Source: a virus
Length of the DNA stretch: 64,000 bases
Reading direction: 5' to 3' (one strand)
IMG/VR virus record: IMGVR_UViG_3300029258_001887
Numbering within the stretch: the first letter of the stretch is position 1; every line of letters starts with the position of its first letter. The notes under the pieces are model-generated. The model did no database searches and had not been told where the DNA came from. It saw only the letters and a program-made list of their open reading frames with translations. Below, piece after piece: positions 9,858-17,010 of this stretch. A program made the position numbers and the translations under genes.

Positions 9858-9887
9858 TGAAACAAACACCGGAGTTTGGGGTATAAT
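9858..9887 (+). promoter_or_regulatory. Promoter, class TG(A/G)AAC-N18-TATAAT
   Basis: TGAAAC 9858-9863, TATAAT 9882-9887. Confidence 0.75.
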
Positions 9888-9909
9888 GATACTGTAGGAG
9901 GAACAACCA

Positions 9910-9993
9910 ATGAGATCGATACGCAGACATTATAAACCCGCCATTTTAGCCGCCGCGCTCAATCCACGCGCACGGGGTGGTGATGCGGGCTAA
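9910..9993 (+). CDS. Leader peptide B (MRSIRRHYKPAILAAALNPRARGGDAG)
   Basis: AGGAGG RBS 9896-9901; 27 aa; 3' end forms a 14-bp antiterminator with the terminator 5' arm. Confidence 0.8.
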   Translation: MRSIRRHYKPAILAAALNPRARGGDAG

Positions 9994-10026
9994 GGTCTGT
10001 CTGTTCCTTTTTGACTGGAGACTTTG

Positions 10027-10052
10027 GCCCGCGAGAAATCGCGGGCTTTTTT
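10027..10052 (+). terminator. Intrinsic terminator / attenuator B
   Basis: GCCCGCGA-GAAA-TCGCGGGC + TTTTTT. Confidence 0.9.
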
Positions 10053-14191: not shown

Positions 14192-14209
14192 GTAGTGAAG
14201 GGGGTTGTC

Positions 14210-15217
14210 ATGAAGCTTGAAGACATTGGATTCTACACGCTATCTGACAAGCGTGCGTTGAACGCTAGCGACACCTCTCCGTTGCAGCGGTGTGAGTTGA
14301 TTCTTACGGATCGCTGTAACCTACGGTGTCCGTATTGCCGTGGTGTAAGACCGGAGATTCGTGGAGATATGCCGTTCAAACAGGCGATTAAAACTGTCAA
14401 TCTCTGGATCGCTCAAGGGCTGAAGAACGTCAGGTTCTCTGGTGGGGAGCCTACTCTATACAAGTGTCTGGGTAAGTTGGTTGATCGTTGTCGTGAAGGT
14501 GGGGTCGAGCGTATCGCAATCTCCACAAATGGTACGGCAAAGCTTGAGACCTATCTGGCTTTGGTCGGAGCGGGTGTCAACGATTTCTCCATCAGTCTTG
14601 ATGGTGGTTGCTGCGCTGTTGGTACGGACATGGCCGGTGGAGTGAAGGGTGCATGGGCGAAGGCTGTAGAGTCTATCCGCACTCTGAGCAAGATCACCTA
14701 CGTAACCGTTGGCATGGTCTTCACCGAGGCTAATGTTGACCAGTGTGTTGAGGCTGTGCTGTTCGTGGACAGCCTGGGGGTTTCTGACATCCGAGTTATC
14801 CCAGCGGCACAGTACAACCAAGCTTTGACAAAGCTGGCCGATTTGCCAGACGAGGTATTGGACAAGTACCCGATCCTGAAGTACCGGATTGGGAACCTGA
14901 AAGCTGATAGAAGTGTACGCGGAATCTGTGAGGGCAATTGTCGCAAGTGCTGGTTGGCACTGGACGACATGGCTGTAGCCGGTAAATGGCACTTCCCATG
15001 CATCATCCACTTACGGGAAGGTGGCGATCCTATCGGTGAAGTAGGTCCGAACATGAGGGCCGAGCGACTACAATGGATTCTTGAACACGATAGCATGGCC
15101 GACCCAATCTGTGCTGCGAACTGCCTGGACGTGTGCGTTGACTACAACGACACGGCAGCTATATCGCACCCAGAAAAGAGGGCCGGTAGCTCAGTGGTAC
15201 GAGCGGGATGCTTATAA
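14210..15217 (+). CDS. Radical SAM enzyme
   Basis: CNLRCPYC, SGGEPT, STNG, ISLDG; extra C-terminal Cys; stop inside tRNA-Ile(TAT). Confidence 0.9.
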   Translation: MKLEDIGFYTLSDKRALNASDTSPLQRCELILTDRCNLRCPYCRGVRPEIRGDMPFKQAIKTVNLWIAQGLKNVRFSGGEPTLYKCLGKLVDRCREGGVERIAISTNGTAKLETYLALVGAGVNDFSISLDGGCCAVGTDMAGGVKGAWAKAVESIRTLSKITYVTVGMVFTEANVDQCVEAVLFVDSLGVSDIRVIPAAQYNQALTKLADLPDEVLDKYPILKYRIGNLKADRSVRGICEGNCRKCWLALDDMAVAGKWHFPCIIHLREGGDPIGEVGPNMRAERLQWILEHDSMADPICAANCLDVCVDYNDTAAISHPEKRAGSSVVRAGCL

Positions 15218-15498: not shown

Positions 15499-15571
15499 GG
15501 GCTTGTAGTTTAGTGGTTAAAACACACGCCTGATAAGCGTGAGATCGCTGGTTCGATTCCAGCCAAGCCCA
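15499..15571 (+). tRNA. tRNA-Ile(GAT)
   Basis: CACGC-CTGATAA-GCGTG. Confidence 0.95.
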
Positions 15572-15638
15572 TAAAGGGGTAACATCGGGTCGATCTTACC
15601 CCATTAACGGGATTTTACCCCATTCCATTACCCCATTG

Positions 15639-15668
15639 TGGATAGAAACACCGTCATTGGTGTATAAA
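15639..15668 (+). promoter_or_regulatory. Promoter variant TGGATA-N18-TATAAA (also GTGTATAAA)
   Basis: Same 18-nt spacing; preceded by TTACCCCATT x3. Confidence 0.55.
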
Positions 15669-15671
15669 CTG

Positions 15672-15866
15672 ATGATGGAAGAAAGAGAAACAGGCATCCC
15701 ATGCTTTGGGTGCGGTCAACGATCGGGTATCGATTGCCCAGGCCGCAGGCCGGATGAGGCCACCCGTTGTAAGGTGTGCTTGGAAGAATTCATGCGGCAG
15801 ATGGACACAGCAGAGCGGGTCATGGAGGAACACAAGGACATGTTGAGAAGGTTGGCAGATTCGTAG
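15672..15866 (+). CDS. Small Zn-finger hypothetical protein
   Basis: CFGC...CKVC. Confidence 0.6.
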   Translation: MMEERETGIPCFGCGQRSGIDCPGRRPDEATRCKVCLEEFMRQMDTAERVMEEHKDMLRRLADS

Positions 15867-15875
15867 GAGCGAGAA

Positions 15876-15947
15876 ATGAAGCTACAACAGCAATCATCCC
15901 AGTCGAGTAGTCAACGGCCTCGTGGCCGTCTGGGGTGGACTGTGTAG
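15876..15947 (+). CDS. Leader peptide C (MKLQQQSSQSSSQRPRGRLGWTV)
   Basis: AGGAG RBS; 10 consecutive Gln/Ser codons; alternative hairpins with downstream terminator. Confidence 0.85.
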   Translation: MKLQQQSSQSSSQRPRGRLGWTV

Positions 15948-15969
15948 ATTCAGGTACACGGAAACACAG

Positions 15970-16005
15970 AACCGGGCGGTCCATGAGGGCTGTCCGGTTT
16001 TTTTT
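15970..16005 (+). terminator. Intrinsic terminator / attenuator C
   Basis: AACCGGGCGGTCC-ATGA-GGGCTGTCCGGTT + T-run, 10 nt before tRNA-Ser. Confidence 0.9.
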
Positions 16006-16014
16006 GTGCGCAGA

Positions 16015-16097
16015 GGAAAGCGCCGCGGAATGGTCTGCAACTCGGTTTGAACCCGAGGGGGGCTGAAAGGCTCGGGGTTCGATTCCTCCGCTTTCCG
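16015..16097 (+). tRNA. tRNA-Ser(TGA), 8/4 cloverleaf
   Basis: 8-bp acceptor GGAAAGCG/CGCTTTCC, 4-bp T-stem, long V arm, G73. Confidence 0.85.
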
Positions 16098-16138
16098 TTA
16101 TCTTGTGGTTCTATGGGGTATATATACACCATAGAATG

Positions 16139-16223
16139 GGGTGGTGAAGTCGCAAGGCGCGGCCACCGGCTGCTAACCGGTTGGGGCTCGCACGAGTCTG
16201 TGGGTCGGGACCACCGCCATCCG
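16139..16223 (+). tRNA. tRNA-Ser(GCT), 8/4 cloverleaf
   Basis: 8-bp acceptor GGGTGGTG/CGCCATCC, T-stem GTGG/CCAC, ACCGG-CTGCTAA-CCGGT, long V arm. Confidence 0.82.
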
Positions 16224-16227
16224 TTGA

Positions 16228-16301
16228 GGGCCGATAGCTCAAGCTGGCAGAGCGTCTGGCTTTGAACCAGGAGGTTGCAAGTTCGAACCTTGCTCGGCCT
16301 G
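16228..16301 (+). tRNA. tRNA-Gln(TTG)
   Basis: TCTGG-CTTTGAA-CCAGG. Confidence 0.93.
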
Positions 16302-16408
16302 TTTTGTACGCAAATGGTGTATAATCCAAGTGAGATGAATCTGCGAAGCCTTCGTTTCTATGTTGACTCGGAATCTTCGTGGCCTTATCAAAAGGAAGAG
16401 GTGAAGTC

Positions 16409-16954
16409 ATGAGTTTGGTAACAGACAACTGGGCAACGAATTTGAATCCAACACCGAAGCCGTTCAAGATGTACAAAACGCTTACGGCAACGGCTGCTTC
16501 TGGAGCGGCTGCGACAGACACACAGAATTTTTTCGTTAAGGACTGCCCGTTTCCGGTCGATGTGATCGGTTTCGAGGTTCACAGCGTCTCTGTATCTGGT
16601 GCTGGTTTCAGTGGCAGTGGGTCTAACCTGACTGTTGCCCTACAGACATCTACGACAGTCGATGCGTCACCGGCAGCGCCGGTATCAGCTTCCTGGGATA
16701 CCCCAGTGAGTGTGAATGCGTCTGGGTATGCGGCAAGTACCGACAGCCTGCTGTTTAGCGCACCGTCTAATTCCGGTGCTGTGCTGCACGCGACCCTCGA
16801 CAAGACCTACGTATCGGTTCCGAAGGGTGGTTCCATGAGGGCAACTCTGTCCGCACAGGCCAAGGACGCTATCGGTTCTGGTACCACTCCGGTTGAGCTT
16901 TTGGCAATCGTCGAGTGTATTCCTACTGAGGTAAAGGATAAGCGATACTTCTAA
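16409..16954 (+). CDS. Probable virion/decoration protein (Ser/Gly/Ala/Thr-rich)
   Basis: GTGTATAAT at 16317; GAGG RBS; beta-rich composition, own terminator. Confidence 0.6.
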   Translation: MSLVTDNWATNLNPTPKPFKMYKTLTATAASGAAATDTQNFFVKDCPFPVDVIGFEVHSVSVSGAGFSGSGSNLTVALQTSTTVDASPAAPVSASWDTPVSVNASGYAASTDSLLFSAPSNSGAVLHATLDKTYVSVPKGGSMRATLSAQAKDAIGSGTTPVELLAIVECIPTEVKDKRYF

Positions 16955-16980
16955 TCTGATCGCGTGAATAGCATCTCTCA

Positions 16981-17010
16981 GGCCGGGGGCGAAAGCTCTC
17001 GGCCTTTTTT
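16981..17010 (+). terminator. Intrinsic terminator
   Basis: GGCCGGGGGC-GAAA-GCTCTCGGCC + T-run. Confidence 0.9.

Follow-up and report, generated by a model that had tools for sequence, protein, structure and literature searches.

Why should the tRNA genes of a phage stand directly behind a transcription terminator, with a short open reading frame (ORF) that is rich in Gln and Ser codons just ahead of it? This question is raised by a 64,000-nucleotide stretch of the IMG/VR virus record IMGVR_UViG_3300029258_001887 (hereafter the window; bases 41883-105882 of a 160,681-bp genome), in which a leader ORF and a terminator precede a tRNA-Ser(UGA) gene, a tRNA-Ser(GCU)-like gene and a tRNA-Gln(UUG) gene, all on the plus strand. 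The answer proposed here, to which we give a probability of about 0.6, is that the region forms a multivalent ribosome-mediated attenuator, which would read the decoding of Ser and Gln codons and gate the tRNA genes behind the terminator. The source genome is evidently that of a large uncultured phage; the window has 49% G+C and 22 tRNA genes (ARAGORN default), and blastn and tblastn found no relatives of the locus among GenBank phages.

The comparison rests on a set of 12 copies of the module, namely that of the window and 11 further distinct copies (L001, L003, L009, L012, L013, L016, L017, L019, L022, L023 and L025) from viral and metagenome contigs of uncultured relatives, which were found through a search with the downstream 181-aa protein and with two DNA patterns. 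Two of 12 metagenome matches (L020 and L021) were discarded as chance matches, and a pattern scan of genome contigs returned 14 matches, all of which were due to chance. The upstream 76-aa ORF, when used as a query, found no relatives, and a profile search with the zinc-ribbon protein encoded just ahead of the leader added no further lineage.

The leader ORF and its codons

The ATG of the leader ORF lies at 15876, 5 nt after an AGGAG Shine-Dalgarno (SD) sequence (15866-15870), and opens a frame of 23 codons (MKLQQQSSQSSSQRPRGRLGWTV) that occupies 15876-15947, stop codon included, which bears out what had been read from the letters of the window in the original prediction. Its codons 4-13 (15885-15914) specify only Gln and Ser, exactly as had been listed there. 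Such runs are rare in this genome, given that a 10-codon window of two or fewer amino acids occurs in 3 of the 1,994 ORFs of 15-40 codons across its 160,681 bp. The last four codons of the block, UCG AGU AGU CAA (codons 10-13, 15903-15914), are the likely sensing codons, and include at least one codon for each of the downstream tRNAs, in the order of the genes (Ser(UGA), Ser(GCU), Gln(UUG)).

The signals that surround this frame are well conserved. The ATG, the stop codon (TAG or TAA) and the length of 23 codons are all kept in the 10 stand-alone copies of the leader, with zero indels within the ORF, and indels of 2 and 6 nt are found just 3' of the stop codon. A purine run resembling an SD sequence stands 5' of the ATG in nine stand-alone copies, L016 beginning at the edge of its contig; the motif is of the GGAG/GAGG type in 8 of the 9 readable copies, with flanking bases that differ, and is a weaker AGGT in L023.

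The manner in which the codons vary is equally informative. Codon 9 is CAA or CAG and codon 10 is TCG, TCT or TCA across the copies, while codon 13 becomes CAG in L025, which was found with a different pattern, and all of these changes are synonymous; codon 6 is likewise CAA or CAG, except for AAG in L022. Within the columns that the search pattern did not constrain (41-49), variation is confined to two sites, each of them a third codon position with synonymous changes (Ser TCG/TCT/TCA, Gln CAA/CAG). Further downstream, at codons 15-17 and 21-22, the amino acids change and the RNA pairs are kept. A leader with a 5' half read as codons and a 3' half acting as RNA should vary in just this way, and a functional peptide should not. 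The leader peptide had no match in Pfam or PHROGs, and no Rfam family matched the leader at E<=1.

The helices and the predicted switch

The free leader RNA folds (z = -5.8) into two hairpins, P1 and P2, followed by the terminator. The 1:2 pairing that had been proposed (15894-902 with 15930-38) is present in this minimum free energy (MFE) fold. In the MFE and RNAalifold structures, the 5' strands of P1 make up region 1 (15897-15919, with 1a at 15897-15902 and 1b at 15914-15919), and its 3' strands make up region 2 (15921-15935, with the core GGCCGUCUGG at 15924-15933), which may pair either with region 1 or with the 5' arm of the terminator. The pairs of P1 join 15897-902 with 15930-35 and 15914-19 with 15924-29. 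P2 (15942-15959; 15942-46 with 15955-59) contains the stop codon and is nested within the antiterminator.

The 13-bp terminator with its T-run was also recovered, with a stem at 15970-15999, a loop at 15983-15986, eight T residues (T8) at 15998-16005 and an energy of -24.3 kcal/mol; the terminator scan places it at 15968-16001. Its 5' arm (15970-15982), together with loop bases that extend the 2:3 helix, constitutes region 3 (15970-15985), and its 3' arm (15987-15999), together with the T8, constitutes region 4 (15987-16005).

These helices are maintained across the copies. P1 and P2 together are 97.9% paired over the 12 sequences. In P1, columns 57:64 pass through C-G, U.G and U-A, and one pair, with C-G turned into U-A in L025, is fully compensatory; P2 taken alone is 100% paired, with G-C/G.U and U-A/U.G changes. 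The terminator is 98% paired in 11 sequences, and two of its pairs have undergone double changes. The duplex energies over the 12 copies run from -13 to -23.5 kcal/mol for 1:2, from -15.5 to -23.9 kcal/mol for 2:3, and from -19 to -26 kcal/mol for 3:4.

The antiterminator required a different register from that of the original prediction. The helix proposed there, 15935-43 with 15976-84, can form in the window, with only 79% of its cells paired across the 11 homologues; its 5' half is broken in 4-6 of these 11, it appears in no predicted fold, and it was rejected. The conserved antiterminator, obtained by folding the nascent RNA with the stalled ribosome masked, pairs 15921-15933 with 15972-15985; it comprises 13 bp interrupted by one bulge in the window's copy, and each homologue forms 10-13 bp. 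At these coordinates the duplex has an energy of -20 to -22 kcal/mol, with p about 0.01-0.02 relative to shuffled leaders. Its core is 99% paired in 11 sequences, versus 14-50% in slid registers, and the helix varies only by transitions that wobble tolerates. The 2:3 duplex is better than that of dinucleotide-shuffled leaders in all 12 copies (p 0-0.048), and no upstream complement was found at five other terminators of the window (p 0.22-0.93). An extension of 2:3 into the two hairpin loops consists of lineage-specific pairs (A-U in L012 versus U-A in L016 and L023), and received no statistical support in a fixed register. Of the trp/his-type attenuator that had been predicted ahead of the tRNA trio, the ORF, the SD sequence, the terminator and three mutually exclusive helices are thus found in 12 copies, with the second helix in another place.

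Folding with and without ribosome masks, for which the ribosome was assumed to cover about -14 to +15 relative to the P site, gave the expected switch in 12 of 12 copies. The free RNA adopts P1 and the terminator in every copy (12/12), and a ribosome on the stop codon likewise leaves the terminator in 12/12 and the antiterminator in 0/12. When a ribosome stalls as codon 12 occupies the A site and the 3' arm is still untranscribed, the antiterminator forms in 12/12. A stall at codons 10-13 is the one that would cover region 1b.

Given these folds, the attenuator may be pictured as follows. A transcript from the promoter-like site near 15660 would carry the zinc-ribbon ORF and then the leader. 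If the leader were left untranslated, or if ribosomes ran through it to the stop codon without delay, region 2 (15921-15935) would be held in P1 or hidden beneath the ribosome, the terminator at 15970-16005 would form, and transcription would stop 9 nt before tRNA-Ser(UGA). If a ribosome stalled on the Ser and Gln codons, above all on codons 10-13 (15903-15914), it would cover region 1, and the free region 2 would pair with the newly made 5' arm of the terminator in an antiterminator of 10-13 bp; the terminator would then come too late, and the RNA polymerase would read on into tRNA-Ser, tRNA-Ser and tRNA-Gln. The loop would be self-limiting, because the tRNAs under control read the very codons that cause the stalling: slow decoding would yield more tRNA, and faster decoding would restore termination.

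We infer that the leader ORF is translated, with stalling at its Ser/Gln codons, and the physiological trigger would presumably be the scarcity or the cleavage of host tRNA-Ser and tRNA-Gln. The attenuator has good support in silico, from the conserved ORF and its signals, the three exclusive helices, the apparent lack of room for a promoter between the T-run and the first tRNA, and the switch in the masked folds. The more specific claim of an autoregulatory, codon-matched attenuation, in which the ribosome checks the codons of the downstream tRNAs (UCN, AGU and CAA) and slow reading permits transcription, is a tentative one, which we place a little below even odds. A codon-specific, self-limiting function is plausible, and a supply of codon-matched tRNAs on demand, to counter anticodon nucleases, would be a conjecture beyond it.

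The strength of the structure (z = -5.8) and the 12-nt internal loop, almost invariant in its nucleotides, would also suit an RNA that operates independently of translation, either as a small RNA with its 3' end at the terminator, or as a riboswitch-like or tRNA-binding leader, in which the unpaired 15903-15914 contacts a ligand or a tRNA. In other bacteria, attenuator RNAs that have been terminated are able to act in trans (rnTrpL, PMC6614838). Such an RNA would leave the SD sequence, the ATG, the stop codon and the frame conserved amid drifting bases for no apparent reason, as it would the restriction of the variable sites of the loop to third codon positions. No Rfam family, the T-box included, matched at E<=1, and the element, with its ~130 nt, is far shorter than a T-box leader. 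Given this, we regard an RNA of this kind as very unlikely.

The tRNA genes, their losses and the neighbouring genes

The three genes behind the terminator are not equally secure. The tRNA-Gln(UUG) gene (16228-16301) is called by ARAGORN at its default settings and scores 63.6 bits in Rfam, which confirms this part of the trio as it had been predicted. The two Ser genes are weaker, being found neither by default ARAGORN nor at the Rfam tRNA thresholds, and only by relaxed ARAGORN. The tRNA-Ser(UGA) gene (16015-16097), of type II, scores 32.2 bits on the Rfam model of tRNA-Sec, which is also of type II, and its homologues score 31.7-46.2 bits. The tRNA-Ser(GCU)-like gene (16139-16223) has a non-canonical T-loop and no Rfam match at E<=10; its homologues keep the canonical T-loop, with 34-46 bits.

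The position of the first gene may matter for its expression. The T-run and tRNA-Ser(UGA) lie just 9 nt apart, apparently too close for the gene to have its own promoter, and no site resembling the sigma-70 consensus, which may not be that of the phage, was called in this gap. Most of the gap is taken up by a GTGCGCA box (16006-16012), present in 10 of the 12 copies; the same box occurs in L004/L005, despite their unrelated terminator hairpin and their lack of tRNAs. The window's remaining tRNA clusters (6797, 8153, 11041, 12725, 13162, 14118 and 15180) directly follow ORFs, and no terminator stands just upstream of them, so the module at 15866-16005 is the only one of its kind in the window to lie directly 5' of tRNAs.

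The two tRNA-Ser genes are separated by a 30-nt, 9-bp inverted repeat around an AT-rich palindrome (16108-16137). Copies of the repeat occur in L001, L013, L017 and L019, with other bases in the stem and arms that still pair; L012, L016, L022 and L023, in which the tRNAs abut, lack it. The repeat may have arisen as a small insertion, or may serve as a processing hairpin or an internal promoter, and it could hold a transcription start for the second and third tRNAs.

The linkage between the leader and the tRNAs was followed across the lineages. In L009, both tRNA-Ser genes are lost and the UCG AGU AGU codons are gone through an in-frame deletion of 6 nt, while the CAA codon and tRNA-Gln are kept. 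The co-variation that the original prediction expected between leader codons and tRNA identity is seen in this lineage only, and fails in L003 and L025. The L004/5, L007 and L011 loci have no leader at all.

Several observations weigh against the attenuator as proposed, and some of these concern its targets: three lineages retain the leader after the loss of some or all of the tRNAs. In L003, the leader is intact and has the strongest antiterminator of all, and the three tRNAs have been deleted, leaving the first ~24 nt of a tRNA-Ser. In L025, all the Ser codons are kept, and only a 13-nt remnant of tRNA-Ser and the tRNA-Gln gene follow the terminator. The tRNA-Ser(GCU) of L013 is broken by an internal deletion, and the GCU-like gene of the window may itself be impaired or decaying, judging from its sequence. 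The leader has thus proved evolutionarily more durable than the genes that it is supposed to control, because tRNA loss or decay accompanies a retained leader in L003, L025, L013 and the window copy. In L022, the terminator and the tRNAs are kept apart by a promoter and a small ORF.

The modelled folds and the statistics add further points of this kind. At equilibrium, the full-length RNA with a stalled ribosome adopts the terminator in 11 of 12 copies, and the nascent RNA prefers the antiterminator in 6 of 12 copies even when no ribosome is present. Given that the terminator is the equilibrium state once its 3' arm has been made (11/12), the antiterminator must presumably act as a kinetic trap, as in the classical systems. 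In terms of covariation, neither 2:3 nor 3:4 scores above shuffles, since the changes are mostly of the type tolerated by wobble and the divergence is low; in L012, a change in region 3 is compensated in region 4 and not in region 2. Finally, the search patterns constrained parts of regions 1 and 2, the invariance of which is therefore in part a product of ascertainment; the same holds for codons 7-9, 12-14 and 18-20, portions of which were set by the first DNA pattern.

Some of these losses may be read in evolutionary terms. The Ser tRNA genes seem, from the copies at hand, to decay repeatedly in the phage group to which the window and its relatives belong. The deletions of tRNAs in the lineages that keep the leader may be recent, as their remnants have barely decayed. 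The insert of L022 (minus strand), of ~300 nt, carries a TTGACA-17-TATTAT promoter and an ORF of ~65 codons ahead of tRNA-Ser(UGA), and would uncouple the tRNAs from the attenuator in that lineage.

The persistence of the leader without Ser tRNAs (L025 and L009), or without all three tRNAs (L003), is what might be anticipated if the attenuator were coupled to translation as a whole, reporting on ribosome availability or on a block of elongation caused by defence or by phage shut-off, with the Ser/Gln codons conserved for some other reason. This explanation draws on the same RNA architecture and the same conservation of the ORF, and it would turn into coincidences both the synonymous-only variation at codons 9, 10 and 13 and the match, in order, of codons 10-13 to the three tRNAs. 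A run of two amino acids found in just 3 of 1,994 short ORFs also argues against a sensor of general status, which we consider unlikely.

The genes upstream of the leader bring in another explanation. A promoter-like motif of the GGTGTATAA type (15658-15669, plus strand) stands 5' of a zinc-ribbon-like ORF, which encodes 64 aa from the ATG at 15672 (15672-15866) with the protein pattern CxxC...CPGR...CxxC, and whose TAG stop codon overlaps the SD sequence of the leader. Homologues of this protein lie 5' of the leader in L012, L013, L022, L023 and L025. The motif, followed by A, C or T, precedes the zinc-ribbon ORF and the gene of the 181-aa protein in all of the related loci, and in the window it recurs only 3' of tRNA-Gln, at 16314-16325, ahead of the latter gene. 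It is not called by the scan for the sigma-70 consensus; from its placement, it is likely to be the start of the transcript that carries the leader. In L009/L010 (L009:2530-2721), a deletion has fused the zinc-ribbon ORF in frame to the leader, which forms its C-terminal tail.

This fusion would be readily understood if the locus were the ordinary end of an operon, made up of a micro-protein gene or a 3' relic of the zinc-ribbon gene, followed by a plain terminator, with the tRNAs expressed through leaky read-through and the 2:3 pairing devoid of a regulatory role. The leader and terminator that persist without tRNAs in L003, and the simple terminator at the same place in L004/L005, could be explained in the same way, and the efficiency of a terminator is known to vary with how far it lies from the preceding gene's stop codon (PMC4824070). 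In this locus, the stop codon lies 22 nt 5' of the terminator stem, out of reach of the ribosome, and a promoter-less tRNA located 9 nt past a terminator of -24 kcal/mol would be poorly expressed. The amino acids vary where the RNA pairs stay (codons 15-17 and 21-22), unlike those of a functional peptide, and the 2:3 duplex reaches significance in each of the 12 copies, with no counterpart at the five control terminators. An ordinary operon end is, on balance, improbable.

The gene that follows the trio encodes the 181-aa protein (16409-16954), found in all relatives with 46-77% identity. Its 5' untranslated region (16326-16408) is conserved in all of them and contains a twofold repeat (GAATCT, ~5-6 nt, GCCTT), which may be a translational operator or a protein-binding site. 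As the gene lies between a strong promoter-like site and a good terminator (16980-17005), its product is probably an abundant late protein. No Pfam or PHROG family matched either this protein or the zinc-ribbon ORF.

Two further features of the window are located farther upstream. A radical-SAM protein (Pfam PF04055) is encoded at 14195-15217, within the tRNA region, and its nearest relatives among GenBank phages, with ~50% identity, come only from uncultured phage genomes of 485-735 kb. At 9858-10052, a second promoter is followed by an SD sequence, a 27-codon ORF and a terminator (10026-10047 plus a T-run) that is also present in the terminator scan; this element lies upstream of a protein gene, with tRNA-Pro/Asn ~1 kb farther on.

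Comparison with known attenuators and possible meaning for phage tRNAs

The proposed attenuator may be compared with the classical leaders trpL, hisL, leuL and pheL. Like these, it has, in silico, a short ORF led by an SD sequence with a run of regulatory codons, a 1:2 helix that overlaps these codons, the alternative 2:3 and 3:4 helices, an intrinsic terminator, a spacing of ~90 nt between the sensing codons and the U-run, and a default termination that would be relieved by stalling. The classical leaders control biosynthetic enzymes, whereas phage tRNA genes are found here, and the output (more tRNA) would answer a scarcity of tRNA rather than of an amino acid. In the trp leader the stop codon lies before region 2, whereas in the phage leader it lies 3' of region 2.

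The mixture of codons is shared with the thr (Thr/Ile) and ilvGMEDA (Ile/Val/Leu) leaders, in which the shortage of any one charged tRNA relieves termination; in the phage, two Ser codon boxes and Gln mirror the downstream anticodons instead of a shared biosynthetic pathway. The pheST leader is a ribosome-mediated attenuator that controls a component of decoding for the codons it senses, its target being a synthetase protein made from the mRNA, whereas the tRNAs would here be processed from the read-through transcript. The closest likeness is with the multivalent leaders of thr and ilv and, as regards purpose, with that of pheST.

The T-box riboswitch also lets the status of a tRNA decide between a terminator and an antiterminator 5' of translation-related genes. 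It differs in that it binds the uncharged tRNA directly, without translation, and in its length of >200 nt, its Stem I and its T-box sequence, none of which is present here. No T-box was matched in Rfam at E<=1 within 15500-16500, and the element has only ~130-140 nt; judged by these features, it is not a T-box.

The genes that usually follow an attenuator are those for amino-acid biosynthesis, transport or aminoacyl-tRNA synthetases, and in this locus tRNA genes follow the terminator instead. That target class is a habit of the known attenuators and not a part of the mechanism. The novelty lies in the target, since the genes in question are those of tRNAs and belong to a phage. In full-text searches of the literature, tRNA genes under leader-peptide attenuation were nowhere described. 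To our knowledge, the regulation of phage tRNA genes is largely uncharacterised, and the debate on phage tRNAs has proceeded without any known sensor.

The reason why phages carry tRNAs is debated, with codon compensation set against escape from tRNA-cleaving defences, and host nucleases do cleave tRNAs, including tRNA-Ser species (PMC10264068). The compact element described here could serve as a natural sensor of the availability of specific tRNAs and, if the proposed mechanism is true, it would give a directly testable read-out of the tRNAs that become limiting during infection. It would also be the first leader-peptide attenuation whose products are tRNAs, carrying a mechanism known from textbooks over to another class of genes, and it would provide the phage with a simple homeostat for its decoding capacity.

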